DNA from: Lytechinus pictus
Lineage: Eukaryota
Reading direction: 5' to 3'
Length of the DNA stretch: 64,000 nucleotides
Assembly: GCF_037042905.1 (NCBI RefSeq)
Contig: NC_087250.1
Location: forward strand, 992,001-1,056,000
Shown here piece by piece: positions 12,645 through 54,856 of this stretch. The translations under genes were made by a program, and so were the position numbers. The notes below the pieces were generated by a model. It searched no databases. It worked only from the letters and a program-made list of their open reading frames with translations, and was not told the DNA's origin. The number at the start of each line of letters is the position of its first letter. The stretch's first letter is position 1.

Positions 12645-12657
12645 TCCTCCCCCCGCC
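12645..12657 (-). promoter_or_regulatory. Polypurine tract of the BEL element
   Basis: Minus strand GGCGGGGGGAGGA directly precedes the LTR 5'-TG. Confidence 0.85.
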
Positions 12658-15900: not shown

Positions 15901-18052
15901 CTTCATTCTCTGTTAACTTTCGTGCAAATCCATTCTCTATCAGTTCCCTCATTTGTTTTCTATATGCATCTGCATGGTCTGGGTTTCGAGCTAGTCTTTT
16001 CTCAGTCGAACACAGTACCTTCTCTGCTTGTGCTCGATTGTTAGGAAGTAGGTTGGGATCCTTTCTCCATGGATAAGCAATCTCCCACTTGTTTCCAACC
16101 TTTCTACTAGACTCTCTGATAATCTGCTCCTCAACCTTCTCCTGCTTGCTCAAAGGGCTTGGCTCACAATGGCAGGAACTAGACTGCACCCCCATAGATT
16201 CTGAGCTCCAGAAATCGGTCAAGTCAATTGGGGATGTCAACTTCACATGCAGCACATTCATCCTATCATTCCTTCTTTTGGGAGCACCAAAGATGACCCA
16301 GCCCAGTGGGGATTTTCGGGCTACTAACTGTCCCTTCTCTCTCGTTTCACCAAGATGCATCTTTGGGTAGTCAATACCTATGAGAAGATGAACTGACCCA
16401 CTTCCTCTGCGTAGATCCTCAGACTTCAGATTAAACTGCTTGGAAACTTCATTCATCTTCACTTGTGCAATATTTTCACTGATACAGGGTAATGCCACTG
16501 CTGCTAAAGAATGAATGGCATTGGTAGAGAGGGACCTCACTTTTATCTGATACTGTTTGGTTTCCATCTGCTCTTGCTCTCCACCAACCTTAGTGATTGT
16601 GATATTTATGTTGCTTCCCTTCAGATTCATCTCCTTAGCAACAGACATCTTGATGAGGCTTACTTGAGCTCCAGAGTCTAAGAGCACATTTCCCTTACAG
16701 ACTGCTCCTTGTTGCCCCAGGATCTCCGCTGTAACTACGGGTAACAGTGCCTCAGAGTTGCCCGCAAAGGCGACATCTACATTTCCACCTCGGACCTCTG
16801 TTGAAGCATGAAGGAGGGGGTGGTGGAAGTACTTGCATGGTTCTCCGGCAGTAGTTTCACTACATCGACGTTTCCGTTTACAGTTTGACATTCTGTGATC
16901 CTTACCAGCCTTCTTTAGACAGCTAAAACAGGCATGATGATCCTTGAGTAGCTTCAGTCTCTCGGATTGTGACATGGCTAAAAACTTACGACACTGATCA
17001 AGCCAATGTGATGATGTTTCACAGAGCCAGCATTTGTGAAATAACCTCTGGAATTTGTTTTCCTGGCTGGCTACTGTCTTCCCGACTAGATGTACACCAC
17101 TTGACTTCGAATCACTTCGGACTGGGGCCGAAGCTCTCATCCTTGACTTCAGTTCAACTGTAAGCCATGTCAGAAACATTTCAAAGCTTGCCTTGCCACT
17201 TGCCTCTTGATGCCTAAACCACACCAGTCGGTCTTCCGGGCTTAGCTTCCTTTCCATTATGGCAAGCATATGGCTATTGTTCAAATTTCCTGGCTGGTTG
17301 ATTTCCATGAGGGTATTGTAACTCCTCCGAACGAGATGCACAAACTCACAAAATCTTTCATCTTCTCCGCTTTTGAGTGGTTTGACTTTTGAGATGTCAT
17401 TGATTATAGCGTCGGCAACAAAGCGCTCATCTCCATATATCATGTCCAACTGTTCCCATGCTGCTTGGTAGTTATGCCCAATTCCTTTAATCAACTGCAA
17501 GGGTTTGCTCTGTAAACATGACCTCAGAATCATTAGGGCATCTCTATCCTCATACTGTCTGCCAACAGCATGTAAAAAATCTGCCTTGAAAATGCAGTAA
17601 TCACGGATGTTGCCATCAAAGGTGGGAAGTTTAGGCCTTTCCATCCTATAAACAGATCCTGACATTCTCCTTCCTGCTTCAGGAGGCTGATTTGTCTGTC
17701 TTGGTGACTGATCTTGCTGTTCATCTGCTGATAAAGTTGTTTCCATACTCTGATGGCTTGTCGATGCTCTAAGATGATGCTCTTGGAGCTGCTGTGCTTC
17801 TCTGTGGCTCTCATTATCTTTGCAATAGTCTCTTTCAAGGATCTGCAGCTTCAAAAATGAATTGTGGCACTCTTCCATCCACAACTCTTCTCTTTCAAAT
17901 TCCTCGTCATCCTCTAGCACTTCCGAATAACTGTCATGCTTATTTTGTAAATCCTCAAAAGCACCAGCATACTGTGCAAACGATTCCTGAACTTCTGGAA
18001 CAGGTCGCTCTCCATCGATCAAGCTCTGAAGGGCCTTTCCAAACCTGGACAA
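12911..18052 (-). CDS. BEL/Pao Gag-Pol polyprotein (Gag, 3 zinc knuckles, protease, RT, RNase H, integrase)
   Basis: KLPTFDG Gag motif; CWLC...H...C, CFSCL...H...C and C...C...HHPLLH knuckles; LLDSGA protease; YMDD RT; FADAS and PRLELQAA RNase H; H..GH...CVIC plus SDNGT integrase; BEL-type C-terminus (WTLGKVIQVYPGTDGKVRTV). The true start is probably ATG 18110 across a 1-nt frameshift. Confidence 0.96.
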   Translation of the reverse strand: MSRFGKALQSLIDGERPVPEVQESFAQYAGAFEDLQNKHDSYSEVLEDDEEFEREELWMEECHNSFLKLQILERDYCKDNESHREAQQLQEHHLRASTSHQSMETTLSADEQQDQSPRQTNQPPEAGRRMSGSVYRMERPKLPTFDGNIRDYCIFKADFLHAVGRQYEDRDALMILRSCLQSKPLQLIKGIGHNYQAAWEQLDMIYGDERFVADAIINDISKVKPLKSGEDERFCEFVHLVRRSYNTLMEINQPGNLNNSHMLAIMERKLSPEDRLVWFRHQEASGKASFEMFLTWLTVELKSRMRASAPVRSDSKSSGVHLVGKTVASQENKFQRLFHKCWLCETSSHWLDQCRKFLAMSQSERLKLLKDHHACFSCLKKAGKDHRMSNCKRKRRCSETTAGEPCKYFHHPLLHASTEVRGGNVDVAFAGNSEALLPVVTAEILGQQGAVCKGNVLLDSGAQVSLIKMSVAKEMNLKGSNINITITKVGGEQEQMETKQYQIKVRSLSTNAIHSLAAVALPCISENIAQVKMNEVSKQFNLKSEDLRRGSGSVHLLIGIDYPKMHLGETREKGQLVARKSPLGWVIFGAPKRRNDRMNVLHVKLTSPIDLTDFWSSESMGVQSSSCHCEPSPLSKQEKVEEQIIRESSRKVGNKWEIAYPWRKDPNLLPNNRAQAEKVLCSTEKRLARNPDHADAYRKQMRELIENGFARKLTENEVAQYEGPVHYISHHAVLRPEKRSTPVRIVFNSSSSYQGHCLNDYWLKGPDLLNDLLGVLLRFRMNEVGFCGDISKMYHRVSIPERDMNVHRYLWRDMETDKKPDVYIMKVVTFGDKPAPAMAQLALRMTAEAAEARYPKAAQVLKESVYMDDICDSVRDVGEAEQLTSEIDQVLLEGGFKVKGWTSNEALRGESKKEGKTKILEAALEDKVLGIAWDNQQDMFFYKLKDTVSSFPNDGKEESSVLTKRKILSRIARIFDPIGFAAPFLVRAKIGMQQLWQRGYDWDELLPPDLQEWWVTFMKEMQDLNDIKYERCLTPPMAVGHPSLCIFADASEVAFGVCVYLQWKLENGKYAVRFVVAKSRVAPLKKMTVPRLELQAAVMASRVYTTVMKELSLKPEKIIFMTDSMIALSWIRSEGRRFKPFVAARIGEIQSYTNPAQWKYVPGELNPADDVSRGLPVRKLSERWKQGPAFLYRSYEEWPSEKAIPEAETEIEAERRRVNHISVKNNDVIDVKRFSSWKKLIRVTAYVLKFIDKLKAVLRAKSNVNLGDGNLSTTQLQKAEHFLIKEAQSSLYQRVQSGEFKTLSPFIDNEGIIRVGGRLDKALISYEHKHPALLPHGAWVSVLITRHMHQLGHGGVAATAAKVRRQYWILNIHKLAKTVKYRCVICRRMEHQVESQVMSDLPDERVAPYTPPFHFSSVDYFGPISVKVGRNKTAKHYGVLFTCLNTRAVHLEVAVDCSSMEFMQVLRRFFAVRGQPALLLSDNGTQFVGAERELREMVRGWSYEELKDFCAERGTTWKFTTPSAPHHNGCAEALVKSCKIALKKAVGDQLVTPFELHTCLQEVANLVNQRPIGRTPNDPDDGAYLCPNDLLLGRSSSAVPQGPFRETKNPRHRFEFVQRIVDAYWKSWMRDVFPLLVPRRKWNSDRRNVRIDDVVILSDPNAVRGKWTLGKVIQVYPGTDGKVRTVKVQSKGTDYKRPISKIVVIYPAEGYEE

Positions 18053-18213
18053 CTTGGCTTTTGCCCCTCTCCGCTGCAGGCGCAGATTTCTTAACCTTCT
18101 CGGCTGACATATTTCTTAAAGACTTCTGATCCCTGATGTAAAGAGTCGTCAGATCCAGACAGCAGACTACTTGTGGTGACCATCAGACCTCTTCCCAGAT
18201 GAAAGAAATTGAA

Positions 18214-19956
18214 TTGCACAGTATGCTGGTGCTTTTGAGGATTTACAAAATAAGCATGACAGTTATTCGGAAGTGCTAGAGGATGACGAGGAATTTGAAA
18301 GAGAAGAGTTGTGGATGGAAGAGTGCCACAATTCATTTTTGAAGCTGCAGATCCTTGAAAGAGACTATTGCAAAGATAATGAGAGCCACAGAGAAGCACA
18401 GCAGCTCCAAGAGCATCATCTTAGAGCATCGACAAGCCATCAGAGTATGGAAACAACTTTATCAGCAGATGAACAGCAAGATCAGTCACCAAGACAGACA
18501 AATCAGCCTCCTGAAGCAGGAAGGAGAATGTCAGGATCTGTTTATAGGATGGAAAGGCCTAAACTTCCCACCTTTGATGGCAACATCCGTGATTACTGCA
18601 TTTTCAAGGCAGATTTTTTACATGCTGTTGGCAGACAGTATGAGGATAGAGATGCCCTAATGATTCTGAGGTCATGTTTACAGAGCAAACCCTTGCAGTT
18701 GATTAAAGGAATTGGGCATAACTACCAAGCAGCATGGGAACAGTTGGACATGATATATGGAGATGAGCGCTTTGTTGCCGACGCTATAATCAATGACATC
18801 TCAAAAGTCAAACCACTCAAAAGCGGAGAAGATGAAAGATTTTGTGAGTTTGTGCATCTCGTTCGGAGGAGTTACAATACCCTCATGGAAATCAACCAGC
18901 CAGGAAATTTGAACAATAGCCATATGCTTGCCATAATGGAAAGGAAGCTAAGCCCGGAAGACCGACTGGTGTGGTTTAGGCATCAAGAGGCAAGTGGCAA
19001 GGCAAGCTTTGAAATGTTTCTGACATGGCTTACAGTTGAACTGAAGTCAAGGATGAGAGCTTCGGCCCCAGTCCGAAGTGATTCGAAGTCAAGTGGTGTA
19101 CATCTAGTCGGGAAGACAGTAGCCAGCCAGGAAAACAAATTCCAGAGGTTATTTCACAAATGCTGGCTCTGTGAAACATCATCACATTGGCTTGATCAGT
19201 GTCGTAAGTTTTTAGCCATGTCACAATCCGAGAGACTGAAGCTACTCAAGGATCATCATGCCTGTTTTAGCTGTCTAAAGAAGGCTGGTAAGGATCACAG
19301 AATGTCAAACTGTAAACGGAAACGTCGATGTAGTGAAACTACTGCCGGAGAACCATGCAAGTACTTCCACCACCCCCTCCTTCATGCTTCAACAGAGGTC
19401 CGAGGTGGAAATGTAGATGTCGCCTTTGCGGGCAACTCTGAGGCACTGTTACCCGTAGTTACAGCGGAGATCCTGGGGCAACAAGGAGCAGTCTGTAAGG
19501 GAAATGTGCTCTTAGACTCTGGAGCTCAAGTAAGCCTCATCAAGATGTCTGTTGCTAAGGAGATGAATCTGAAGGGAAGCAACATAAATATCACAATCAC
19601 TAAGGTTGGTGGAGAGCAAGAGCAGATGGAAACCAAACAGTATCAGATAAAAGTGAGGTCCCTCTCTACCAATGCCATTCATTCTTTAGCAGCAGTGGCA
19701 TTACCCTGTATCAGTGAAAATATTGCACAAGTGAAGATGAATGAAGTTTCCAAGCAGTTTAATCTGAAGTCTGAGGATCTACGCAGAGGAAGTGGGTCAG
19801 TTCATCTTCTCATAGGTATTGACTACCCAAAGATGCATCTTGGTGAAACGAGAGAGAAGGGACAGTTAGTAGCCCGAAAATCCCCACTGGGCTGGGTCAT
19901 CTTTGGTGCTCCCAAAAGAAGGAATGATAGGATGAATGTGCTGCATGTGAAGTTGA
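18214..19956 (+). pseudogene. Inverted, truncated duplicate of the BEL gag-protease region
   Basis: Reverse complement of 16237-17979; the 579-aa ORF is identical to the minus-strand polyprotein until it runs into the minisatellite. Confidence 0.93.
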
Positions 19957-38423: not shown

Positions 38424-41282
38424 CCGGATGTACGTCATACGTAAGCGGTTCAAGGGTCGACCCTATTGTATTTGCGTTGTATACATGTGGATCGAGGGAT
38501 CTACATGTTCATGAGATCGGTCTGGTAAGAAACCTTCATTTTTTAACATTTTATTGACCATTTTTTTAAACCTTCCTACGCATTAGGCGTAAGGTGTAGA
38601 ATTTAATAAAATCAACACAATTTACGTGATTTTTATATAAAAAATTTGTTTTGGTCAGTATATGTCAAATAATAAAAAATATCAGACATGTAGTCCTCAA
38701 GGCTAGCTTTGTACAATACCGTTTATTTTTATGTTTCTGTGAACCAAACAAAATGGCCGGCCGACGTATTTGATCTTTCTTTCCTTTTTTTTTGATGCAC
38801 CGATTTTGCAAAAATAATCTGCACCGGCGCTCGCGCTTGATGACATCGATCGAACACCGATATTAAAAATAAAATCAATTCGACTCAGGCTTAATGGAGA
38901 CTGTCTTTTTTAATTGAATGATTAAACTCTTGACATTATAACTTATGCCAACGGCGACGGGTTGGCCTCCGCAATTCTTGATCGCACACCACGCCTAATT
39001 CAACGGCAGCAAAGGCTCCCTCGCTCTCCGAGTCATGCTCACCCATAGGAACATTACCGCCGCCGTGCACAGGATAACCACTGGCACGGCACTTGCAATA
39101 CCTTTAGGGCTATTTTTTTTTAAATTAGCGATAGAGATTTTAAATCAGATAAGCTTTGGATATGAAACTTTCATTTCCTCTCTGTCTTTCTGGTAATTTA
39201 TATCGATGATTTTTCTTAAAGTCGAAGAAGGCATGGACCAGATTCGCCTGTTTTCTCTTTACGCATAGAGAGGGCGCTATATTATTTAATAAACTTGCTT
39301 GTTACGTCGGATCAGCTGTACAGCTGGTTGCGTTCTAGGCAAGCAAAAAAAAAAAGGAAAAAGTTATCAACCCAACTTTTAGGGCGGGACCACACAAATT
39401 TTAGGGGGGGTCCACCTGATTTTTTTTTTTTTTGGGGGGTGTGCAGGAAACAAAATTGATAAGCAAAAAAAAAAAAAAGTTATCAACCCAACTTTTAGGG
39501 CGGGACCACACTAATTTTAGGGGGGGTCCACCTGAATTTTTTTGGGGGGGTGGGCGCAGGAAACAAAATTGATAAGCAAAAAAAAAAAAAGTTATCAACC
39601 CAACTTTTAGGGCGGGACCACACTAATTTTAGGGGGGGGTCCACCTGAATTTTTTTTTGGGGGGTGGGCGCAGGAAACAAAATTGATAAGCAAAAAAAAA
39701 AAAAAGGGTTGTCAACCAAAATTTCAGGAGGGACCACCAACATTTTTTGACAAGCAAAAAAAGGTTATCAACAAAAAAATTAGGGGGGGGACATTCCCCA
39801 CCTCAAATTTAGGGGGACACAACCCCCCTTCCCCCCCCCCGCTTCCGCCGCCTATGTCTGCACCCCCGATAAACTAGCTTCATCATCCCACTTTTCCGAC
39901 TGAACTCGCAAGACATCTTGCTCGTTCAGTCCCCTTTCATCATATATTTATTTGTTTGTTAATTTATTGTATACATGCAAAGATTCTTTATTTATATGAA
40001 TTGTCACTGTAAACTTTTTTAAGGTAGAAAATAAAATATTAAAAAAAAAAAATGAGATGTAACCTGTTGATTTTTTTTGTACAATTTTCTATATTATGCG
40101 CCGACTACTTGAATCGGGACTGTTTAGAATGTTTGCCACACCTTAGTGAAAGATAATTTGTTGAAATATTAAAATTGGGATAGTTTTTAACTTTTCATTG
40201 TTTGAAATCAAAGTGCGTAGCTTTAGGTCCCCCCACCATACAACTAACCTTAAAGGAGAATGAAACCCAAAATGTAATACCACATATCATTGATAAGTAA
40301 ATGATAATCAAAATGAATCCACTTATACCCATATCCGATTTCCCAGAGTGGAGTACCACCTCTTCAAAGTTAGACTTCTTCAGGTTCGAAGTCTCTGAAT
40401 GGAGATCGCCATTGTTGCGAGGTTCGTTCAAAATTGTGACGTCAGCGACGTACAACTGCTCTCGGTACTAGCTTCCATGTGCAGCTAGTCACAGGCTGAA
40501 ACCAACCCAGAGTTCGCATAATATAGATACTTTTTTTACAAGAAATAAATATAATATACACATAAAAACACTTGAAAATATTATCAAAAAGCTATTCAAA
40601 TTATTCTATGGTTTAAAACACAAATTGATGAGTTTTGATGAAAATGTTTACACATTTATTTACTATTACCAAATTGGCAAATTTGACAAAGCTAAATTTG
40701 TACGTAGACAGTATATACAGCCGTCCCCGCCGCCCACTCATCACACGTATTGCAAGGTTAGTATTATAAGCCAGCACCGTGAACCGCGTTTGGCAGTGGA
40801 TTTCTATCTAGTGGGTCGCGCGTGCTAGGATCTTCCTTCTGGTGTCCACAACACACGACTTCTGTGGCTTGATTTTTCTGTGCGCGGCAGCATGTAATGA
40901 ACCCTTGAGTGCCGACCGCCGACCCACGAACCGAGTGATCGTGTTAACTGTTATGTTGGAAGTTTGGTTGTCTATCCCGTTTGAATATCGTTAAATTGTT
41001 AATTGTGCTATTTTTCAATATATCTAACGTTGTTTATTATTTGTTACCGTCGATTTTAAGTAAAACAAAACTTATCGGACGTTTGTATTGAAATACATAC
41101 TCTGGCCCATGTATTTTATGCTAGCAATCAAAGGCGAGTGCCGAGGTCGGACACCGAGTTGTACGTCGCTGACGTCACAACCCCCCACGGAGATATTATA
41201 CATGTGGAAGAAGATTAAACTTGGACGAAAGCTAGACCTGGAAACTTGGCTGCAGCTTTCTGCATTTTTCCAGTACATCCGG
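38424..41282. mobile_element. Candidate non-autonomous DNA transposon with 10-bp TIR and TAA duplication
   Basis: taa-CCGGATGTAC ... GTACATCCGG-taa; interior is CpG-richer than the flanks. The TIR is short, so the call is tentative. Confidence 0.4.
39340..39705 (+). repeat. ~117-bp tandem repeat (3 copies) with homopolymer runs
   Basis: aagcaaaaaa...gttatcaacccaacttttagggcgggaccacac...ggaaacaaaattgat repeated three times. Confidence 0.85.
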
Positions 41283-41963
41283 TAATAGGTAATAGGTAAT
41301 AGGAAATAGAACTTAGTTAGAAGGCCCGAGAGCCTACGACTTCGAGTCCCAATACTCGGCCGAAGAAATCGGTAAAATGCTCGCTACGAATAACATCAAT
41401 CCTCGTGAATTTGGAAGAATTGTTGTATTTCTCCACCTTAAGTGCAGCCACTCATTTTTTAAAGAGATTTCTGGCCTCTTCTGCGGATCAGGAATTTGGC
41501 AAAAGCTGCATTTTGTGCCCCTTTCTGACCACTCTGGCCCATGTATTTTATGCTAGCAATCAAAGGCGAGTGCCGAGGTCGGACACCGAGTTGTACGTCG
41601 CTGACGTCACAACCCCCCACGGAGATATAGGGAGTATGAGCAAAATGGCGATCTCCACGACCACGGGTAGGGTGTCTGGAGAAAAAAATTATTTTTCTTA
41701 TTTCAAGAAAATATAACATTTTCTTTGTTAATTTGAAGAGAAATGACCTTCAGACTGACAGAAATGTAACATTTTTGAAAAAAATCCAATTATTGGCTGC
41801 AAAAAAGAAGAATGAAATTAGGTAAATTTTCAGCATTTCTCTGCCATAGACTGTGTAGTTAAGAAATGGACACACACAAATCCAAATTTTTAGCTTCCGA
41901 GAGCTGTTATGAATTTATTATTAATGCCAAAAACTTGTCCATAAAGAGTCCAATAGGATTTTT

Positions 41964-42334
41964 TATGGGGAACTTGGTCGCCCGCGCGAAGTGCTACAAT
42001 ACGCGCGACCGTGCGTGCGACCATGCCCCCCAGAAACCCTCCATACGTACGCAGAATCAGGATCCCAAGATCAGACGCATTCTCACGTTCAGCTCTCGAT
42101 CAGTACAGTACTACAGTCTACTACGTATACGTCCCTCAAGTTCACACGAGTCATCAGGTTCTACGACAAGTCTACTTACAAGTTCTACGACAAGCTCTAT
42201 ATACTTACAAGTCATCGAAGTCTTCATCCTCTGTAAGATTAAGACGGACTGACCCAGGATTAAGGTGAGTATATGGTTCTCGGCAATCCAGCTTACTTTA
42301 TTTAGGTTAACATCCATATAGTTAGTTTACTATA
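41964..42334 (+). repeat. Gypsy 5' LTR (TAT...ATA termini; contains an AAG/GTGAGT donor at 42264/42265)
   Basis: Direct repeat of 53842-54212. Confidence 0.93.
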
Positions 42335-42337
42335 TAT

Positions 42338-42347
42338 TGGCGCTGCG
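42338..42347 (+). promoter_or_regulatory. Primer binding site, tentatively tRNA-Ser type
   Basis: TGGCGCTGCG 3 nt after the LTR; complementary to a tRNA ending ...CGCAGCGCCA. Only about 10 nt can be matched. Confidence 0.6.
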
Positions 42348-44921
42348 TATGAACACGACTCTGCGCTAGTTTTGTAAATGCAGTAAAACAAGCGGCGCAG
42401 AAAACCAAATTGGCTAGACATCGTTTTAAGTGCTTAAAAGTAGGGAAAAGTGTGCCGTAGGGCGGCAAAGTAAATCGCACTCTTTATAAATTGTTTAAAT
42501 TTTTGATTCAATCCGCCGTCCTACAGCGATATAGATCTGTATTATAGTTATCTTAAACAAATAATAGCAGTGTTTTAGGGCTTATTCTCAGCGTTTTTGC
42601 GTAGGTTTTAAACCCTTACACTATCCCCTTAACCCGGTTTAAATTTTGGGTGTGGCAGGACGCCACGTAGGGCACGCCATTTATGCAAATAGCGTTAAAC
42701 GTTTTCTATTGTTCGCCGCTCCCCGCATTCTATTGTGTGTTAGGGCTGAATGTATGCCTTGCCTGAGAGTTGCTTGGGGTGTGGTTCTGGCGATGATTTT
42801 GTATGTACCCCCTTTCCCTGTTAGGATTTAATTAAATTAGGATTTGAATTTTGATGTAGGATAATTAAATTTAGGAATTGTACGTAACTGAGATATATAT
42901 TTATTGTTGAATTTGGCTGTTGGTGATTTAATGATTGCGTGATTGGTGAAAGATCGTATTGCTTAACCTGACTTTCCCCCCTTTAGCTGTAGCAGACGAC
43001 GAGGAATCTACGTACGTTGAGTAGTTGAGTTATGATGATTCTGTATATGCCGTTCTTGATTCGTGAGGTCGTGTATTGATATTACGAGTGAAAACGAATT
43101 TTGACCATTTCTTATACAGATTTTCCCGTCTTGCAGTAATCATTTTTTGGCGCCAGTTAGGTTGCCGTTTTACGGATTTATTCGGCGCCGTTTAGATTGC
43201 CGTTTTGCATATAGGGAGGATTTTACTATTGCCGTTTTATAGGTGCGTGAAGTCTGAATTATACCGTGACTTTTTTGTATGGAATTATCCTAGTGTTATC
43301 TGGCTAAAACGGAGTTACCCTCATACGACTTTAGTACGTCGGGTTTCTCTTGTGGACTTTATTTAATGATCAATTTGATTTCATCTCGGTATTAAGATAT
43401 CATCTCAAAAAAAAAAAAAATAAATAAATAAAAATAAAAATAATAAAATAAGGAGTGATTGATATATTTTATATGCCGTTGCAAGCCACCAATGCTTATA
43501 TTTAGAGTGGCATTAAGCTACAAATTTTAGTGGATGGTATTTATATTAATTAATTATTTAGTCAGTTGGTGAATACTTAGAGTATTTTTTGGAGCTTGAA
43601 CATAAGTCTGGGGACTCGACCAATTATATTATATTGGCCTAACTTGTCTTCGGATTTAGTGAATATACTCATTGATTCCCGTCACGTACATTGGTGACGC
43701 TCGTATTTTGGACAATTATTGTGCTAATTTTATTTTAGGACTGAAAGTTAACTTTTGACTTTGTATTTTTATAATACGGTCCGTCTCATTATAATCCGAC
43801 GCTACTTGCGTTAGTGTAGTTCCAAAAACTCTCTCGTACTTAATCTATTCAGACTTCCGTACACCCGTGGGGAATTTATTTAGAGAAAAAAACTTAATAG
43901 TTTATTGGAGTTAAAGATTATATATTTTGACCGTTATAACAATCTCTGGCCACCGGTAGTTTGTTGCAAAGTCGCACCTGCTGTCAATTAAAAGTACAAC
44001 GATATTATTAATAGGGCCTTTGTGGATTGTTTAAGCTGATCTAGAGTTAGGATTTTGCTTGATCGTTTGTACGTTTACATTTAGGAGTTCTTTGGAACAG
44101 AAATTTGACTTACTTAGTGAATACTTGAACTTCTTGTCATTTTGAGAAAAGAAATACTTATATAAATTTTGCTCTGAATAAAAAAGAAAATAAAATTTTC
44201 ATTCGGTTCTGAGATAGAAAGTTTTGAATCTGTAATTCGAGTTTATATAGGAAAGAATTATTCCAAACAAATTTGACTTTGAGATATAATATTTTAGAAC
44301 TTCCATCTAATTATAAGAGCATAGGGTGCTTGTAATTTATTTCGGTATTCTTAGTTCATATTAGTATTGGGTCAAGGATTGGACCATTTTATATCAGTAT
44401 TTGGTCATTTTCTTTGGTCATCGACAAGCAAGGTCATTTTTAGTTTTTAATTATCTGAAGGGTGTTTTCAGTATACAAAGCTTATAGATAAGGGATAAGC
44501 AAAGTATATATATATACGCCCGAAGATAATTTAAACTTTTGTGTCAGCAGTGGAGGCATTTTCCACTTAGTACACATATAGGTGCTGGGTGCACCTGGTT
44601 AGCTCAGCATCGGAGTAGAGGCTAGTGTTTTATTTTCGGTATATTTACACATTTGTACTTAAATAATATAGGCCTCATATTGGCCATATCAGAGCTTTAA
44701 ACCTTTGATAAATTTTAATAATTAGGTTTTCCAAACAAACTTAGTTTTTAGTTGTTGTTGTTTAGCTCTCTGGTAAGATTGATGATTGAAAGTGATCAAT
44801 CCTATTTGGTGGTGATCACTGATCAGTGATAATTCTGATTTTCGAAGGAGCTTTACTCAGTACTTAGGTGCTTGTTAGCGTAAGATAGAACTTTCAAAAT
44901 TTAGTCACCCTTCATCGAATC

Positions 44922-47081
44922 ATGTCCAAGATTCAAATTAATTGTTGTGAGCCAGAGGAGCTATTGAAGGTCCCAGGAATTGGTAGTACTTTGGCCGAGC
45001 GAATATTGGTCCTCCGAGAGGCTAATGATATTACGATGGAAACTTTCTTAGATATTCCGCACATACGTAATGCCTCTGAGATTGCAGGGTATTTTGATTT
45101 TGCCCCTTATGCTGTTTTAGAATCTGGCACAAATTCTACCGATTCTATTGAGGAAAGAGTGATAGTAGGCCCTGCTGCGGCAGGTGATGTAGCAGCACAG
45201 GTGGGCGATGAGCAGCCAATCCAATCCCCCTCTCCCTACCCTTTTGAATCCTATCCTCAAGATTCGTTGCCAGGACATCTTAAAATAGTAATGGGGAGAG
45301 AGAGTGGAGAGTCAGGGGCTGCCAGCTCACGCAGAGATAAGGTAGCTAGAGGCAATTCGCCCTCACGGAAGCATGTGGTTTTCTCTTCGCCGCGAAAACG
45401 CACACCCCCACCGAGGGAAGGTGAGGATGATGGGCTTTCTTCCCCTATGAAGTCACCCTCAAGTGACCAGGCCAGTCCTAGGTCATCTAGGGATCATGCT
45501 AACCCACCAAGGGGTAGCCACGGGTCACCTATATCTCGGTCACCCACATCTGGTCGCCACAACAGCCGCCGTGGATCACCACGTACAAACCGCCGGGATA
45601 GTCGATATGATTCTCCTTTTCGGGATTATGGTGGGCGCCGACAAGGGTCACCTAGAGGTCACAGGCGGGATCGATATGATCATAGTAGGGATCGTTATGA
45701 TCGGAGTAGAGATCGTTATGATCGCAGTAGGGATCGATATGACTACTATAGGAACAGGTATCGCTATTCCCCTCGCCGATATCGAAATGACCGTTATGAT
45801 TCTCCCCCACGATATTATAGGGGTAATCACAGTCCGTGTAGAGGTCGTGATGATTGGCATAGGTCAAACTCTAACCGTTCCCACTCGCCTGACCATGGCC
45901 CTCGTAGGTCATCATCCCCCCGTAGAACACAAGACCACAATAGGCGGGATGCAAGACAGTCAAATGAAGACGTAGCAGTTGATTTATCCTCGCGTGTTTT
46001 GCAATCACTATTTGCCATCAACCGTGCCCCTGAAACGCAGGCCCCCCAATCCCAAGAGCATGATTTCGAGTCCCACAACCCACCACCGGTACGAAGATCC
46101 TTAAGTACCAGTACAGGGGAAGGGGACAGACCCCGACTGGTTTCGGTGCCAAAGTCCATAACCTTTAACGGTACGGGCAGCTGGCAAGCCTTCATTGCGA
46201 AGTTTAAATTATTCGCCAGTGAGAATGGGTGGGACGCCAAACAATCGCGTAATTACTTATGTTGGACGTTAAATGGGGAGGCTAGCTCCTATCTAGCCAC
46301 GCTTCTTGAGCGAGAGCCCGATATGCCATATAACATTATGGTGAATAGGATGGAAAAGAGGTTCACACTTAAAGAAATGCCTGAGGTATCGCAAATGAAT
46401 TTCTCTTATGCAAGACAGACCCCTGACGAGAATGTCACCAAGTGGGCTGCTCGGTTGCTTACCTTAGCCTCTCAGGCTTTTCCTAATTTGCCCGAGGCAT
46501 ATGTGCAGCAGCAGGTAGTGATGCGTTTCTGCCAGGGCTCCGCAGATAAGGAAGCTGGGCAACATGCACTCAATTCCAGACCTAAGACCGTGGAAGAGGC
46601 TGTTGATCTTGTTAAATGGTATCAACACTCACACCGAGCTATTTATGGGAAACCGCGCAGGGAGGTTAAACATGTCTCCTTGTCTGAAAAGACCCCCCTT
46701 GAACCAACCGCAAGGCAGGTGAGTGCGCCCCCTACTTCCCCAGCGTATACCGTTTTAGAGCGAAGGGTTTCCGCTTTAGAAGGGAAGATGGACTCTGCAC
46801 TAAAGCAATTGGAAGCACTTGGGTCTTTGCCGGCTACTGTTCAAAGCCTAGCTGAGAGTGTAAAAAAGTTAGTAGTTTCTCCTCGTGGTAGAGGCAGAGC
46901 ATCTCCTGCCCGAGGGAATATGTCACCGGGTCGTATTGGTGCCTGCTTCCACTGTGGAAAGTCTGGACACTTCAAGAACGAGTGTCCAGAACGAGGCCCC
47001 CGACCGAGCGTTTCCTTTGTCTGTGAAGATTTGGGAAACGATTCGGGATCGGAGGAGGAGGTCCGACCCCGATCCCACTAA
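44922..47081 (+). CDS. Gypsy Gag with N-terminal HhH (ComEA-like) motif, RS/RD-rich region, capsid domain and CCHC knuckle
   Basis: IQINCCEPEELLKVPGIGSTLAERI; (RDRYDRS)n; FNGTGSWQAFIAKF; CFHCGKSGHFKNEC. Confidence 0.92.
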   Translation: MSKIQINCCEPEELLKVPGIGSTLAERILVLREANDITMETFLDIPHIRNASEIAGYFDFAPYAVLESGTNSTDSIEERVIVGPAAAGDVAAQVGDEQPIQSPSPYPFESYPQDSLPGHLKIVMGRESGESGAASSRRDKVARGNSPSRKHVVFSSPRKRTPPPREGEDDGLSSPMKSPSSDQASPRSSRDHANPPRGSHGSPISRSPTSGRHNSRRGSPRTNRRDSRYDSPFRDYGGRRQGSPRGHRRDRYDHSRDRYDRSRDRYDRSRDRYDYYRNRYRYSPRRYRNDRYDSPPRYYRGNHSPCRGRDDWHRSNSNRSHSPDHGPRRSSSPRRTQDHNRRDARQSNEDVAVDLSSRVLQSLFAINRAPETQAPQSQEHDFESHNPPPVRRSLSTSTGEGDRPRLVSVPKSITFNGTGSWQAFIAKFKLFASENGWDAKQSRNYLCWTLNGEASSYLATLLEREPDMPYNIMVNRMEKRFTLKEMPEVSQMNFSYARQTPDENVTKWAARLLTLASQAFPNLPEAYVQQQVVMRFCQGSADKEAGQHALNSRPKTVEEAVDLVKWYQHSHRAIYGKPRREVKHVSLSEKTPLEPTARQVSAPPTSPAYTVLERRVSALEGKMDSALKQLEALGSLPATVQSLAESVKKLVVSPRGRGRASPARGNMSPGRIGACFHCGKSGHFKNECPERGPRPSVSFVCEDLGNDSGSEEEVRPRSH

Positions 47082-47090
47082 AAGCGGACC
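47033..47090 (+). promoter_or_regulatory. -1 ribosomal frameshift signal (G GGA AAC + predicted H-type pseudoknot)
   Basis: Slippery heptamer 47033-47039 in the gag frame; stem 1 gggatcgg (47045-52) / ccgatccc (47069-76); stem 2 ggtccg (47060-65) / cggacc (47085-90). The -1 frame is open into pol. Confidence 0.85.
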
Positions 47091-47101
47091 CCAATTCTAA
47101 T

Positions 47102-50100
47102 TTGGATTCCGAAAATGCCAAAGTACTTTTACAGGATTCGCTCCCTCAAGAGGAGCAAGAAACAGATATATCCTTGGTAGTACTTGAGGCTAACAGGTCG
47201 TTGGATAGCGAAGACTCTCTTCCCAGAGGAAGTAAGGAACTGGGTGTTCCCTCTCCTGAATTGATTGTTAAAGAATCCGAACTGAGAGATGGCGGTCAGG
47301 ACGGTATTGGTATCACTGAAGGGTCAGGGAAAGTTCCGAGTGTCAAGGAACTCTCCTCTCCACCCCCCATCAGCCAGGTGATTGATACGCCTAGGCCTCC
47401 ATTGGAGCCCAGCCCCTGGTTGGTACCCCCCTGGCCACCCCCTGAAGAGAATCCGCAATTAGATAGCTGGATCCTGAAGGACCTCGAACAGGCCTCGGAC
47501 GTTGTAGTCTGCCGGATAAAGTCATCATCTACTTATAGCATAACTATATTGGTCGGTAACCAATCGATGCGTGCCGTAATCGATACTGCTGCAGAGGTGA
47601 CTATAATGTCTGACAAAATCTACCATGCACTACGCCCCGCTCCTCCAGTTATTAGGTCAGTCGTCCTAAATACAGCTGGAAGAAATATGAGTATGACTGG
47701 AATGATTGTAGGACCGGTTGATATGACTCTAGGTGGCCAGACGTTTAGTGAATGCGTCTATGTTGCCCCGATAGACGATGATATGCTGCTTGGAGCTGAT
47801 CTCCTCAAGAAGCACAGTGCATTCATCAATATACCGGATTCCTTGTTAATCTTTCAGGGCGAGTGCATTGCAATGACTTGTGGTGAAGACACTGATACCT
47901 CTCAGGTTTTCGTTTCAAATTCTGTGACCATCCCCCCAATGTCAGTCAAACGAGTACAATGCGAACTTGATTCTTCTTGCACGTTTGACCAATTTATGGT
48001 AGAGCCGGATGTTGCCCTTATAGGATTGGTTCCCCGCACATTGCATTCTGGGAGTAGCTCTATACAGTTATATGCTGTGAATGCTACTGATGTTTCCATC
48101 CATTGGGATAAAGGTCAACACCTCGGACAGGCTTCTCGCGTAGGTTCTAGAGAACCCCCCGACTTTGACAATCCTATTCCAAGTGTCAGCCAGGTTGACT
48201 TGACTGGGGATGCCAAAATCCCCACCCATTTGGAAGATCTTTGGAAACGATCTTCGGAACACTTAATTCCTGAACAGCAAGGAATATTAAAGGGCTTGTT
48301 GCTAGAATTTGAGGGTGTCTTTGCCCGGGATGAATTCGACTTGGGTAATTTCACAGCCATTACCCATTCAATCGACACAGGCGAAGCTACGCCCATCAAG
48401 CAAAAGATGAGGCGTACCCCCATGAACTTTGTTCAAGAGGAGCGAGCATGTCTTAACAAAATGCTGTCCGCCGGGGTGATCCAACCTTCGATGTCGGAAT
48501 GGGCGTCCGCCCCTGTCTTAATCCGAAAACGGGACGGTAGCGTCCGTTGGTGTATAGACTATCGTAAACTTAACAACGTTACGAAGAAAGATGTCTACCC
48601 GCTTCCTTGCATCGAAGAGTGTTTGGATACCCTAGCAGAGAATTCATGGTTCTCCAAACTAGATGCAAATTCTGCCTATTGGCAAGTCAATCTCAGGCCG
48701 GAAGACCGTGAAAAGACAGCATTTATCACCAAGTATGGTTTATACGAGTTTGTTCGCATGGGCTTCGGCTTATGTAATGCCCCAGCCACGTTCTCTCGAG
48801 CAATGAATCTCATCCTCAGGGGATTGAACTGGGATATCGCTTTAGCCTTCTTGGATGATGTTGTAGTGCTCGGCACCTCTTTCTCTGATCACGTCACTAA
48901 CATCAGACAGGTGTTGGAACGATTTAGGGACTTTAAGCTTAAGTTGAAGCCAAAGAAATGTTCCTTCTTCCAACGTCGGGTAGAGTTTCTTGGTAGAGAG
49001 GTTGATGGGAATGGTCTCCACCTTAAGGAAGAGCATGTTCAAGCCGTAGTGGACTGGCCCACCCCTAAGTCCACAAAGGAGGTGGAACGGCTCCTCGGAC
49101 TTGTAAATTATCACCGTGTCTTCCTTAAAGACTATGCCCAGGTTGTAGGGCCACTCTATGGCCTCACTGGGAACAATGACTTCCGCTGGGAGGACCAGCA
49201 TCAAGTGGCTTTTGAGGAAGTCAAGAGGCTCATGACCACCGCCCCTATCCTCGCACTACCCAACTCCACGGATCCGTTCATTCTGGATACCGATGCGTCT
49301 GGCACAGCTATTGGGGCTGTTTTAACCCAAGTCCAACAGGGGCAAGAGCGAACTATTGCATATGGCAGTTTTTCCCTGACCCCTGAACAACGACGCTATT
49401 GTGTAACCAGGCGTGAGCTGTTGGCAGTGGTACGGTTTACCCGCCAGTATAGGCATTACCTCCTCGGAAAGCCTTTTACAGTTCGCACGGACCATGGGAG
49501 TCTGACATGGTTAATGAACTTTAGGGAGCCTCAAGGGCAGCTTGCCCGGTGGCTCGAAGAACTGGGCCAATATGACATGGCAGTTGAACACCGCCCTGGC
49601 AAGAAACATCAGAATGCAGATGCATTGTCTCGTATACCCGACGGCGACTTTACATGTGAGAACTACCGTCTGGGTATTGACCCCAAGAGTTTGCCCTGTG
49701 GTGGTTGTGCATACTGCCTGAAGGCCCACACAAACTGGGCACACTTCACTGATGCTGTGGACAATGTGATCCAATTGGCACAAAGGAGTAAAGTTTCGGA
49801 AGTTACCCTTGACCCCGGAGAATCGGAGGACCTCTTTATCACTCACCTGGATATTGGTCCAATCGACGGTCCATTCTCTTTTAGGGTCAACGGGGTAACC
49901 CATGATGCCGGGTCTGGTATCGACCTCACCTCAATGGACTTTCTTCGGAAAGAACAAGAGGCTGATGGTCAACTGACCCCCTTGCGCAAATGGCTGCTCG
50001 ATAAAGAGGAACCAGACGAGGGAACTGTTCTTCTGTGGGACCCCGCTGGAAAGTTCCTATGGGTCAACCGAGAGCTGTTTGTGCTTAAGGATGGTGTCAT

Positions 50101-51385
50101 TTGGCGTAAAGGCGATGACAATCTCCTACTTGTAGTGCCCAAGTCTTTGCGTACTGAAGTGATCAAGCTAAATCATGATCCTCCTTCAGCAGCTCATGCT
50201 GGTGTGAACCGTACTAAAGGTAAACTTCGGTCCAAATACTACTGGTATGGTATGTCGGGCGACATCCAAGAGTATATTCGGAGATGTGCCGTCTGTAATA
50301 AAAATAAGAAAGCCGTGAGGTATGGGAAACACCCCATGATAACTTATCATGCGGGGGCCCCGATGGAACGTGTACACCTCGATTTCATGGGTCCTTTACC
50401 CAAAACCTCACGAGGTAACGTGTACATCTTGATGATGGTGGACCAGTTCACCAAGTGGGTTGAGTGTGTCCCACTGCCCTCTCAGACAGCGGAAGTAACC
50501 GCTCAGGCAGCCATTAGCGAGTTCTTTTGCCGCTTTGGCTATCCATTCCAGATTTTTACTGATCAGGGCAGAAATTTTGAGAGCAGGTTATTCACGAACA
50601 TCTGTAAACTGCTCCATATACATAAGGCTAGGACTACCCCGTACCGACCTTCCGCAAACGGCCAGGTTGAACGTTTCAACCGAACCTTAATGGATGCGGT
50701 AAGGTGCTACATTGGGAAGTCCCAGACTCATTGGGACCACAACCTCGCCCAGATCGCTGGAGCGATTCGTTCCACGATCAACCGTAGTACGGGATTCACG
50801 CCCAATCAATTGATGCTGGGGCGTGAAACTAATCAACCAGCGGAGCTGATTTTTCCACTTCCCCCATCCGTCTCTGACCGACCTCTGGATGAATATTCAT
50901 CTCAGTTATCCCAGAGCATCCGAGAGGCGCACGATGCTGCGAGAGCCACCCTCCGGAATACACAGCGACGGTTGAAGCGGGATTACGACATAAAGGTATA
51001 CTTGCGGCAATTTAAAGAAGGGGACCGAGTATACCTTCTCGCCAAGGCGACCCCCAAGGGAAAATGCAAGAAGCTGCAATCTCCCTGGAAGGGTCCGGCT
51101 ATTATCGTGAAGCGATATACCCCTTATGTATACCGGGTGATCTATCGGAACAAGGCCCTGACTGTAAACCATGACCAGCTCAAAAGGTGCCTTGACGAGG
51201 CCAAGCCCTCAGGCCCTGACTGGAGGAAGGAAAGGTATTGCTACTGTAGAACCCCCGACGATGGATCGTTCATGATTCAATGTGATGGGTGCGATGAGTG
51301 GTTCCATGGTGCATGTGTTGGTGTTACCCATGCGGAAGGAATGTCTATTGACAAGTATTTTTGTCCTTTTTGTAGCTGTGGGTAA
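47102..51385 (+). CDS. Gypsy Pol (protease, RT, RNase H, integrase, C-terminal PHD finger); probably entered by frameshift at ~47039
   Basis: IDTAAEVT protease; RWCIDYRKLN, YPLP and FLDD RT; DTDAS RNase H; H...H...CAVC, TDQGRNF and NGQVER integrase; WKGP; C4HC3 YCYC...MIQCDGCDEWFHGAC...CPFC. Confidence 0.96.
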   Translation: MDSENAKVLLQDSLPQEEQETDISLVVLEANRSLDSEDSLPRGSKELGVPSPELIVKESELRDGGQDGIGITEGSGKVPSVKELSSPPPISQVIDTPRPPLEPSPWLVPPWPPPEENPQLDSWILKDLEQASDVVVCRIKSSSTYSITILVGNQSMRAVIDTAAEVTIMSDKIYHALRPAPPVIRSVVLNTAGRNMSMTGMIVGPVDMTLGGQTFSECVYVAPIDDDMLLGADLLKKHSAFINIPDSLLIFQGECIAMTCGEDTDTSQVFVSNSVTIPPMSVKRVQCELDSSCTFDQFMVEPDVALIGLVPRTLHSGSSSIQLYAVNATDVSIHWDKGQHLGQASRVGSREPPDFDNPIPSVSQVDLTGDAKIPTHLEDLWKRSSEHLIPEQQGILKGLLLEFEGVFARDEFDLGNFTAITHSIDTGEATPIKQKMRRTPMNFVQEERACLNKMLSAGVIQPSMSEWASAPVLIRKRDGSVRWCIDYRKLNNVTKKDVYPLPCIEECLDTLAENSWFSKLDANSAYWQVNLRPEDREKTAFITKYGLYEFVRMGFGLCNAPATFSRAMNLILRGLNWDIALAFLDDVVVLGTSFSDHVTNIRQVLERFRDFKLKLKPKKCSFFQRRVEFLGREVDGNGLHLKEEHVQAVVDWPTPKSTKEVERLLGLVNYHRVFLKDYAQVVGPLYGLTGNNDFRWEDQHQVAFEEVKRLMTTAPILALPNSTDPFILDTDASGTAIGAVLTQVQQGQERTIAYGSFSLTPEQRRYCVTRRELLAVVRFTRQYRHYLLGKPFTVRTDHGSLTWLMNFREPQGQLARWLEELGQYDMAVEHRPGKKHQNADALSRIPDGDFTCENYRLGIDPKSLPCGGCAYCLKAHTNWAHFTDAVDNVIQLAQRSKVSEVTLDPGESEDLFITHLDIGPIDGPFSFRVNGVTHDAGSGIDLTSMDFLRKEQEADGQLTPLRKWLLDKEEPDEGTVLLWDPAGKFLWVNRELFVLKDGVIWRKGDDNLLLVVPKSLRTEVIKLNHDPPSAAHAGVNRTKGKLRSKYYWYGMSGDIQEYIRRCAVCNKNKKAVRYGKHPMITYHAGAPMERVHLDFMGPLPKTSRGNVYILMMVDQFTKWVECVPLPSQTAEVTAQAAISEFFCRFGYPFQIFTDQGRNFESRLFTNICKLLHIHKARTTPYRPSANGQVERFNRTLMDAVRCYIGKSQTHWDHNLAQIAGAIRSTINRSTGFTPNQLMLGRETNQPAELIFPLPPSVSDRPLDEYSSQLSQSIREAHDAARATLRNTQRRLKRDYDIKVYLRQFKEGDRVYLLAKATPKGKCKKLQSPWKGPAIIVKRYTPYVYRVIYRNKALTVNHDQLKRCLDEAKPSGPDWRKERYCYCRTPDDGSFMIQCDGCDEWFHGACVGVTHAEGMSIDKYFCPFCSCG

Positions 51386-51408
51386 CCCATTTCCTTTTCT
51401 CTTTTCAG

Positions 51409-52722
51409 ATGGATGAGCTAGAACTCCACGCCGAGTCAACCTTCGAGGTGGAAATGGACACCCGGCCCCCCTCTACCCCCCCAGAGGCTATCCCTCCAGA
51501 GGCTGCCTGGCAGGCAGAAATAGATGCACGGATGGGCCCAATCCCGCCCCCTGGCAGTAGACAAAAACGTACGTGGCTCCGTAAGTTGCGTCGATTACGG
51601 AGTCGGTTAAGGGCAGGGTCCAGGGATTCCCCTAATTCCCTAAAGGAAACTCCCGGTCCTGCCCCTGTCATGATGAAGGGCGTTAAGCCATCCAAAGGAA
51701 TGGGGAGGGGGAGAGGGTTTGCAAGGGTCCGCAAGGGTCCCATAACACCCGGGACGCCCGGTACTTTCCATAGTAAGGGGAGAGGGAGGGGTCTCTTGAA
51801 TTACCTCAACCGAGAAGATTTCTCTTTAATGGATGCCCCCGCTCGGTTAATGGATGCCCCCGCCCCTGCTCCGAGCTCCCATCCCCCGCCTCTGCTAGGG
51901 TTTGATAGCCATTTTCACCCAGACAGGTGTGGTTGGTACAGTAAGAGAAAGGGGAAGAGCGTGGTGACAAAGCACCCGGTAGAGATAGTCGGAGGGGTCC
52001 TGAACTTCTGTGACCCAGAGTTCTTTATGGACCCCGGCTTTCTTTCCCGGGTGCTGGCTCACAGCCCCCCATACAACAAGAGGGACGGGAGCTGGAGATT
52101 AGCAGTAGGGATACACCCTAAACAGGCCTCACAGTACACCGAAGATCAGTGGCAGCGTTTGGTTGCCCTACTTCAAAGCCCCTTGGTTGTAGGCGTAAGC
52201 GAACTGGGCTTTGACTTTTCTGTCAACTCCCAGTGGTGGCCTGACCAGGAAGCGCTCTTTCTGCGACTTCTTGGTCAGGGCACCCAAGGGAGGGTCCTTA
52301 TCCTTCACCTAAGGGGTGATTCGAAGAATAATACCGCGTACGCGGCGCACACTTTGGCCCGCCGGCTTCTTGCAAAGCACTGCTCCCCACTCCAAAGGAT
52401 ACACATCCATAACTTCTCCAGCGATGCTTTGCAAGCCGGGAAATGGATCGCTGCCTTTCCATATTGCTATTTCGGTATTGCCGGGATGGCAGCGTACTTC
52501 ACAACAGAACAAATTCAAGGCCTTAGGGCCGTCCCCGCGGATCGGCTAATTCTGGAGACCGATGCTCCGCATCTCCCTCCTCGCCCGGACATGACGGTGA
52601 CTTCACCTGAAAGCCTGGGTGATGTGGGGGCGGTGGTAGCCAACCTGCGGGGGCAGCCCTTGGCCACTATAATGGCCCAAGCCACATACAATGCAAAACT
52701 ACTGTATGGCCTGTTAGGGTAA
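51409..52722 (+). CDS. TatD-family metal-dependent DNase with a basic/RG-rich N-terminal extension (Gypsy ORF3)
   Basis: DSHFH, AVGIHP, GVSELGFD, LILHLRG, IHIHNFS and RLILETDAPHL reproduce the TatD motifs (DxHxH, GxHP, GExGLD, HxR, HCF, ETDxP) in order. Confidence 0.9.
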   Translation: MDELELHAESTFEVEMDTRPPSTPPEAIPPEAAWQAEIDARMGPIPPPGSRQKRTWLRKLRRLRSRLRAGSRDSPNSLKETPGPAPVMMKGVKPSKGMGRGRGFARVRKGPITPGTPGTFHSKGRGRGLLNYLNREDFSLMDAPARLMDAPAPAPSSHPPPLLGFDSHFHPDRCGWYSKRKGKSVVTKHPVEIVGGVLNFCDPEFFMDPGFLSRVLAHSPPYNKRDGSWRLAVGIHPKQASQYTEDQWQRLVALLQSPLVVGVSELGFDFSVNSQWWPDQEALFLRLLGQGTQGRVLILHLRGDSKNNTAYAAHTLARRLLAKHCSPLQRIHIHNFSSDALQAGKWIAAFPYCYFGIAGMAAYFTTEQIQGLRAVPADRLILETDAPHLPPRPDMTVTSPESLGDVGAVVANLRGQPLATIMAQATYNAKLLYGLLG

Positions 52723-53833: not shown

Positions 53834-53841
53834 GGGGGGAA
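53834..53841 (+). promoter_or_regulatory. Polypurine tract of the Gypsy element
   Basis: GGGGGGAA directly before the 3' LTR. Confidence 0.8.
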
Positions 53842-54212
53842 TATGGGGAACTTGGTCGCCCGCGCGAAGTGCTACAATACGCGCGACCGTGCGTGCGACC
53901 ATGCCCCCCAGAAACCCTCCATACGTACGCAGAATCAGGATCCCAAGATCAGACGCATTCTCACGTTCAGCTCTCGATCAGTACAGTACTACAGTCTACT
54001 ACGTATACGTCCCTCAAGTTCACACGAGTCATCAGGTTCTACGACAAGTCTACTTACAAGTTCTACGACAAGCTCTATATACTTACAAGTCATCGAAGTC
54101 TTCATCCTCTGTAAGATTAAGACGGACTGACCCAGGATTAAGGTGAGTATATGGTTCTCGGCAATCCAGCTTACTTTATTTAGGTTAACATCCATATAGT
54201 TAGTTTACTATA
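53842..54212 (+). repeat. Gypsy 3' LTR
   Basis: Direct repeat of 41964-42334. Confidence 0.93.
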
Positions 54213-54856
54213 TTTTTATGCTCTATCTGATGGTATGATTTTTATAAAGATTTGGAAACCAGATCACAATGAAAAATTGCGACAAAGTGAAAAAAATTGT
54301 GCAAAACAGAAATTTCATTTTCCCATAGAAAACGCATGGAGAAATGGCAATCTCAACACACACAAAAATAAGGGTTTGCAATTTATCTCTAAATCCTTAT
54401 TTAAAATGATCATATAAACTTGTCCTTACTGTCAAAAGAAAGCCCTGAATTTTCTCTTTCCATACATGCCAAACACAAGTTAATAATCAATTCAGATCAC
54501 ATTTTTCTAGTAGCCTGAACTTCCCCGAAAAAATGTGCCATATTTTCCCCTAAATTAGCCTGTTTTATGCTGACTCTTTTCAGTGTGGCTTCAGACACCC
54601 TACCACGGGTCTTTCTTTTCAAATATCAAAATATTGATAACTTTGACTTGGCATATCATGGGAAATAGGAAACCGTTCTGCCTCATTTTAATTTTATTTT
54701 AATCAGTGAAATGTAATCACTTTATGATCAGATAATAAATCTATCCTTTCATTTTCCTTTAAGTTGCATGCTTGTGTGAGTGTGTCATGCTGTGTGCACA
54801 TCATGAAATCGCACTAACAAAACATCTAATATATGGGGCCGAAGCGTAAAACTTGC

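Follow-up and report, generated by a model that had tools for sequence, protein, structure and literature searches.

In retroviruses and errantiviruses, env is expressed from a subgenomic mRNA in which a 5' donor close to where the element begins is joined to a strong acceptor before the env ATG. Such env messages are summarised in a study of the bdelloid rotifer LTR retrotransposons Juno and Vesta, in which the third open reading frame (ORF3) codes for an enzyme, either a 3'-5' exonuclease of the DEDDy type or a GDSL esterase (Rodriguez, Kenefick and Arkhipova 2017, PMC5408684). ORF3s are typically expressed by spliced messages, and the ORF3 products of Juno and Vesta have no coiled coil (PMC5408684). 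A second point of comparison is human TATDN2, which degrades RNA in R-loops and has little DNA nuclease activity; its AP-endonuclease activity is only very weak and its activity on plain RNA:DNA duplexes minimal, it cuts hairpin RNA, and its binding to R-loops needs a long disordered N-terminus (PMC10711561). The human protein has been reported to be insoluble (PMC10085689).

We analysed a 64,000-nucleotide stretch of the Lytechinus pictus genome (the window), which contains an LTR retrotransposon with a TatD frame, here also called ORF3, in the position of env. As in Juno and Vesta, the env slot holds an enzyme with intact catalytic residues and no transmembrane segment (PMC5408684), and activity is predicted in both. 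Unlike theirs, the enzyme is a TIM-barrel TatD protein of the amidohydrolase fold and not an RNase D-like DEDDy nuclease (no DEDDy domain was found in ORF3, which matched PF01026 only and has the TatD fold), it apparently goes back to a single capture at the root of the clade, with joint inheritance with pol since then, and pol has a PHD finger instead of a dUTPase. Like env of retroviruses and errantiviruses, ORF3 comes third, after pol, with a candidate 5' donor and a strong acceptor just before its ATG; unlike env, it has no TM-like segment or fusion-protein features and its predicted product is a nuclease, and unlike in env mRNAs the donor lies within the LTR, upstream of the primer-binding site. 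With human and animal TATDN2 (Group II; PMC10085689, PMC10711561, PMC12709183) ORF3 shares the HxH motif, the E/H/H/E/D ligands and a long low-complexity N-terminus, and with animal TATDN2-like proteins also an insert after HxH and a sister-clade position in the tree. In contrast to TATDN2, it is intron-less, borne by an element and spread over many diverged families, with activity that is predicted only, and many ORF3s add a C2H2 finger and a helical domain unmatched in host proteins. A search of the open literature, including the accessible text of PMC6238403, found, among the papers it listed, no report of TatD in LTR elements (Repbase and subscription papers lay outside its scope); the accessible text of PMC12440569 does not use the term TatD, and that of PMC6962438 merely names a TATDN2 gene. 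The arrangement is of the same kind as that of the rotifer ORF3s, with a different enzyme, and we did not find TatD cargo described for such elements.

Architecture of the element and its third frame

The element is a complete and very young Ty3/gypsy LTR retrotransposon (Metaviridae). Behind gag, Pfam matches follow in the order protease, RT, RNase H, then integrase, and LTRs, a polypurine tract and a short target-site duplication are all present (Table 1). We set the LTR ends from six copies. The 4-bp duplication was found in 5 of the 6 full-length copies of the window's family. The usual, though not universal, TG...CA ends are absent from this family, whose LTRs run TAT...ATA; TG...CA is found in several sister families. 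The window's LTR is matched in the genome by six LTR pairs of 97-100% identity, and a genome search found no close solo LTR. The RNase H motifs of pol are intact by motif scan. The helix-hairpin-helix at the start of Gag (window 44922-45100) was matched by tblastn in 5 of 9 families, and the PHD finger forms the end of integrase in all nine; two outgroup gypsy elements have neither PHD finger nor TatD.

Table 1. Features of the ORF3-bearing element, in window positions.
Feature	Position	Strand	Basis or remark
Left target-site duplication TTTT, 4 bp	41960..41963	+	Empty-site reads compatible with a 4-bp duplication
5' LTR, 371 nt, TAT...ATA termini	41964..42334	+	100% identical to 3' LTR
TATA-like box	42198..42203	+	Motif scan; ATG-free up to donor
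Candidate splice donor AAG|GTGAGT, GT at 42265	42262..42270	+	Rank 2 of 709 GTs
Primer-binding-site-like TGGCGCTGCG	42338..42347	+	Position right behind the LTR; starts with TGG
gag: N-terminal helix-hairpin-helix, PNMA-like capsid part, CCHC knuckle	44922..47081	+	Open frame
pol: protease, RT, RNase H, integrase	47027..51385	+	Pfam; catalytic motifs present; frame open
C-terminal PHD finger of pol	51239-51373	+	Pfam
Polypyrimidine tract and AG acceptor, pol stop to ORF3 ATG	51386..51408	+	Rank 1 of 759 AGs
ORF3, 437 aa, with an acidic start, a basic region (GRGRG) and a TatD domain	51409..52722	+	
TatD domain, Group II (HxH), TATDN2-like	51901..52710	+	Pfam, structure model, tree, shared insert
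Polypurine tract	53834..53841	+	Sequence
3' LTR, 371 nt	53842..54212	+	Identical to 5' LTR
Right target-site duplication TTTT, 4 bp	54213..54216	+	

The element is inserted into another repeat (window 41100-41960 and 54213-54600), and RNA reads spanning the empty site of that repeat occurred in two runs. Elsewhere in the window are two perfect long inverted repeats, at 16237-19956 and 9628-12653, with arms of 1743 and 1475 nt at 100% identity; 32-nt and 50-nt tandem arrays adjoin them.

A preliminary description made from the letters of the window had placed a TatD nuclease between pol and the 3' LTR, and this was confirmed: the frame is open throughout, with its ATG 23 nt past the pol stop. 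Its only Pfam match is TatD, with the whole PF01026 model aligned to aa 165-434 (E 4e-29, at 102 bits where the curated cut-off is 27), and 10 PDB sequences of the TatD family match it. The structure model (pLDDT 91.4) likewise has the TatD fold, and the 15 best PDB entries listed for it are TatD or unnamed TatD-like proteins at TM 0.69-0.77. The metal ligands are retained by motif position (H168, H170, E265, H300, H334, E383 and D385), as had been noticed at the outset for HxH, E, H, H and D, and they correspond by motif to residues assayed in PMC10085689 and PMC10711561. The HxH motif stands in DSHFH at aa 166-170, behind an N-terminal extension of 164 aa, both of which are Group II traits (PMC10085689). 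The product of ORF3 is very probably an active nuclease.

The absence of a TM segment was also upheld, as the highest 19-residue hydropathy was 1.36 and fell inside the TatD barrel. The reported basic N-terminus with GRGRG repeats needed correction, since residues 1-30 are acidic, with a net charge of -7, and the basic part is aa 41-135 (25 K/R versus 2 D/E), with GRGRG at 99 and 124. With its acidic start, hydropathy of at most 1.36 and no Pfam match besides TatD, ORF3 gives no sign, by these measures, of the signal peptide, TM anchor or fusion-protein homology of an env gene. Identical copies gave rise to a 430-aa RefSeq protein that starts at the same ATG as ORF3, and proteins identical over the TatD region carry the RefSeq label 'putative TATDN2 [Lytechinus pictus]', so that ORF3 is annotated as a host gene. 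The length of 437 aa in the window, against 430 aa in sister copies, comes from a 21-nt tandem duplication (window 51829-51870) that keeps the frame.

Longer ORF3s have a conserved C2H2 zinc finger and a helical domain (together ~150 aa) before TatD, as at L021:2752-3264 on the minus strand; the ORF3 of the window is without it. This region was present in ~100 of the best 150 homologs and in 6 of 11 ORF3 frames examined. It models well (pLDDT 91.4), but had no Pfam match, no Atlas match at 0.9 and no Foldseek match at E 0.001, and its best structural Z of 3.3 gave no family or fold match, so that neither a known nor a novel fold is indicated.

Diverged families, selection and the host TATDN2-like gene

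The genome harbours at least 90 TatD-like matches, and we took 20 kb around 26 of them for family analysis. Nine diverged families, the window's included, had the layout gag-pol(PHD)-TatD; at five of the 26 loci the 13 kb upstream contained no pol, and several more loci were disrupted. Compared with the window, the other families were 75-88% identical in RT and 32-47% identical in TatD, with LTR pairs at 95.8-100%. The ligands HxH, E, H, H, E and D were kept in all nine pol-linked families. Decay of ORF3, which the preliminary description had named as a possible objection, was not the rule in the window's own family, where ORF3 was whole in five of the six full-length copies. For the TatD domain, comparison with an older subfamily copy gave a dN/dS of 0.072, from 81 synonymous and 25 non-synonymous differences, and ORF3 differed from four sister copies by 3-6 synonymous and 0-1 non-synonymous changes. 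By this measure ORF3 is under purifying selection, and we regard the shared layout together with selection as close to certain.

The branching of the nine families was the same in the pol tree and in a 43-row TatD tree, with several weak nodes; a 9-row TatD tree taken alone was mostly unresolved, with one of six branches starred. From these trees we conclude that TatD is co-inherited with pol in the nine families. ORF3 is missing from a tenth family, which belongs to the PHD-pol clade of the other nine (loci L178 and L190 at G000:C3:56786988; C29:962610; C28:311375). Its C3 copy is young and full-length, the gag and pol frames being open and the LTRs matching at 98.3%, which shows that ORF3 is accessory or is supplied in trans. 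An antisense frame of 607 aa in this family was considered as alternative cargo and rejected, since by eye it resembles an insertion of a non-LTR reverse transcriptase.

A profile search beyond this genome yielded homologs of which the best 150 representatives at 50% clustering all had E < 1e-75; of the 133-150 rows per ligand column, 125-144 retained the ligand. Named homologs came from L. variegatus, S. purpuratus, Ostrea, Pecten, Ruditapes and Elysia and are known from proteins alone, those of molluscs and other urchins including XP_060555212.1, XP_056014015.1, XP_033730888.1, RUS80029.1 and XP_030850575.1; none of 206 homolog proteins fetched had a gag or pol match. Viral contigs gave two distant matches. 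In a metagenome scan, 79 of 80 loci were 24-32% identical and apparently ordinary microbial TatD, and the remaining one was a short contig at 35%. One ORF3-like protein, P0075, carries the label of a Sedimenticola MAG (MES9883066.1, on a 6-kb contig); it is probably animal DNA in a symbiont bin.

The genome has one TatD gene that contains introns and encodes a long N-terminal part, at C3:58.22-58.23 Mb (protein P0218). This protein and seven full-length animal relatives have HxH; we call them TATDN2-like by the description in PMC10085689, their source names being 'uncharacterized'. The insert G[GC]Vxx[FY]CxP, common to ORF3 and the host proteins, occurred in 8 of 8 host rows versus 0 of 16 bacterial-like rows. 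Searched with an ORF3 profile, host TATDN2-like proteins scored 152-187 bits, YcfH 113, TATDN3 48 and TATDN1 44.

The preliminary description had proposed placing ORF3 in a TatD tree with TATDN1, TATDN2, TATDN3 and bacterial TatD. In the 43-row tree (15 of 58 rows had been thinned out, and another four were without the motif at which the sequences were cut), which held no TATDN1, TATDN3 or human TATDN2 row, ORF3 grouped with the host proteins and apart from bacterial-like rows: the ORF3 clade (100/98) was sister to the eight TATDN2-like proteins (96/86). The ORF3-like protein P0018 fell outside the ORF3 clade. This position as sister to intron-containing host genes points to one old capture, and the intron-less copy in the element would fit capture of a processed mRNA. 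ORF3 is far removed from host TATDN2, with clade stems of 0.37 and 0.64 changes per column, and the substrate may have changed over this distance. The earlier idea of a captured, intact nuclease under selection in the env slot was thus borne out by the PF01026 match, the ligands, a dN/dS of 0.07 and the host TATDN2-like sister clade.

Splice signals and probable expression of ORF3

The two splice signals pointed out in the preliminary description, an acceptor AG (51407-08) immediately before the ORF3 ATG and a consensus donor in the 5' LTR, are both present and rank first and second in the element by a simple score devised for this analysis (Table 1). The AG past the pol stop was the best acceptor of 646-1157 AGs in eight of the nine families and second in the ninth, although the 450-nt post-pol window holds only 2-7% of the AGs. 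Among non-coding AGs alone it ranked 1 or 2 in all eight families tested, while at the equivalent place in three ORF3-less elements the rank was 6, 13 and 36. No strong acceptor precedes gag in the window (rank 37 of 759).

The donor is less uniform. Six of nine families have GTRAGT within the LTR's 3' half (one of nine on the antisense strand), and three lack it there; in three of the six donor-bearing families the 9-mer was weak (ranks 24, 41 and 81). Dinucleotide shuffles of the LTRs gave a mean of 0.63 and a maximum of 4 families in 2000 trials, a test somewhat flattered by the choice of motif and LTR half after viewing the LTRs. Around the donor of the window, 22-25 of 25 nt were kept in four older LTRs whose overall identity was 77-80%.

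RNA coverage of the 11.9 kb was sparse, with 16, 10 and 10 reads in three runs (~6% of each), many of them on the flanking repeat, and contig set X1 covered the element evenly, like DNA. The proposal that ORF3 is expressed separately from a spliced RNA therefore has the conserved signals in its favour, but no read joined 42264 to 51409 at a depth that was too low for this purpose. No processed copy of the predicted junction turned up when the genome was searched for exact matches. Three LTR-ORF3-LTR copies without gag-pol were considered as reverse-transcribed spliced RNAs and rejected, because their breakpoints (42332/51496, 42347/51612 and 43799/52189) lie away from the splice sites and indicate ordinary deletions. 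In a RefSeq model of the L. variegatus counterpart of two pol-less host copies, which is a gene model and not reads, an upstream exon is joined in phase to the same type of acceptor. Together these signals make a message spliced from the LTR to ORF3 likely.

The alternative to such a message is that ORF3 is translated either as a fusion of Pol and TatD, through a frameshift or read-through, or by re-initiation past the pol stop, and is packaged, with the splice signals incidental. The ORF3 frame of the window opens 10 nt before the end of pol, its ATG is 23 nt beyond the stop, and in C5b ORF3 lies in frame behind the pol stop. Across families, however, the first ATG in the ORF3 frame lies anywhere between 24 and 427 nt past the pol stop and overlap of the two frames is often lacking, and this variation argues against a fusion; a frameshift or read-through common to the families was rejected on the same grounds. 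The acceptor is the only feature common to the pol/ORF3 junctions across families, and we consider a fusion very unlikely.

Possible roles and wider meaning

Our main reading, to which we give a probability of about 40%, is that ORF3 is a TATDN2-type nuclease in the env slot, expressed from a spliced message and acting as an accessory RNA 3'-exonuclease on R-loops. A processed host TATDN2 mRNA would have been captured at the base of the PHD-bearing Ty3/gypsy clade. Splicing from 42264 to 51409 would drop the primer-binding site, gag and pol and place A at -3 and G at +4 of the ORF3 ATG. The basic stretches of the protein may direct it to act in the nucleus, where, by analogy with human TATDN2, its substrate would be RNA in R-loops, and it could strip RNA from R-loops at transcribed copies of the element. 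The benefit may be easier transcription of the 12-kb genomic RNA and, where elements reside, a reduction in replication damage or in RNA-tethered silencing. This is the most likely role in view of the basic GRGRG region and the probable message apart from Gag-Pol; taken by itself, the RNA/R-loop role, argued from analogy, falls just short of even odds.

The functions first put forward leaned towards DNA: trimming or repair of cDNA, resolution of RNA:DNA hybrids and removal of DNA used by host sensors or competing elements. With intact RNase H motifs in pol, ORF3 is no replacement for RNase H, and the TATDN2-like host kin and the activity profile of human TATDN2 make cDNA trimming and generic hybrid removal less likely than had been proposed.

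An RNA substrate may also be attacked for other ends, and ORF3 might be a counter-defence nuclease that degrades small guide RNAs or RNAs of the host or of competitors in trans, unrelated to R-loops. ORF3 is accessory and losable; unrelated DEDDy 3'-5' exonucleases occupy the same slot in rotifer elements, for which a link to silencing has been discussed (PMC5408684), and human TATDN2 cleaves hairpin RNA (PMC10711561). Against this, ORF3 is under strong purifying selection (by dN/dS only) with no hint of an arms race. The 3' ends of piRNAs are usually methylated and resist 3'-exonucleases. We regard counter-defence as rather unlikely.

Slightly less credit goes to a spliced, separate ORF3 directed at DNA, which would trim or repair cDNA ends or integration intermediates or cut AP sites, in the manner of TATDN1, TATDN3 and bacterial TatD. 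Most characterised TatD proteins, Group II included, are DNA 3'-exonucleases or AP endonucleases (PMC10085689), ORF3 is much diverged from host TATDN2, and the C2H2 finger and helical domain of some ORF3 frames could bind DNA. However, the closest host clade is TATDN2-like, and human TATDN2 has the low DNase and AP activities noted above (PMC10711561); moreover, it is not evident how a product separate from Gag-Pol would enter the particle, and the ORF3-less family still transposes. A DNA-directed role is accordingly unlikely. That ORF3 is a mere passenger, a recently captured host sequence of no use to the element, might be read from the family without ORF3 and the many decayed TatD fragments in the genome, but is largely refuted by the dN/dS of 0.07, by ligands kept across nine families with TatD domains 32-47% identical to the window's and by co-inheritance with pol.

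Some ORF3 copies stand outside elements. Two without pol (G000:C15:31243155-31253400 and C18:26152719-26164200; L007, L008, L041-L044) are sister to the window's ORF3 at 51% identity, with one ligand His changed to Gln. A Gln-rich host exon 8-9 kb upstream has a GTAAGT donor in phase with the retained acceptor, and Lytechinus variegatus RefSeq XP_041481951/2 has the same exon-acceptor join; this looks like a host gene that took in ORF3 as an exon. A further pol-less frame, of 1180 aa (G000:C4:20313728-20317300; L072), has a degenerate active site and a decayed tandem copy beside it, is 89.5% identical to L. variegatus XP_041463689.1, and is possibly a second host capture.

Put together, and more tentatively than the main reading, it is possible that an ancient, hitherto undescribed gypsy clade spread through echinoderms and molluscs captured the germ-line R-loop RNase TATDN2, expresses it by env-like splicing and uses it to manage its own R-loops and perhaps RNA-guided silencing, that hosts re-captured it at least twice as an exon, and that many 'TATDN2-like' annotations are retrotransposon ORF3s. 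Nuclease cargo in the env slot was known before from rotifer elements, where it has no demonstrated function. A second, unrelated nuclease fold under clade-wide selection would suggest that a step in the life cycle of intracellular LTR elements has repeatedly rewarded a separately expressed 3'-exonuclease. As ORF3 is small and well modelled, and families with and without it occur naturally, its substrate and role can be tested directly. These ORF3s may also serve structural work as compact relatives of TATDN2, and they flag the mis-annotation of element genes as host TATDN2.
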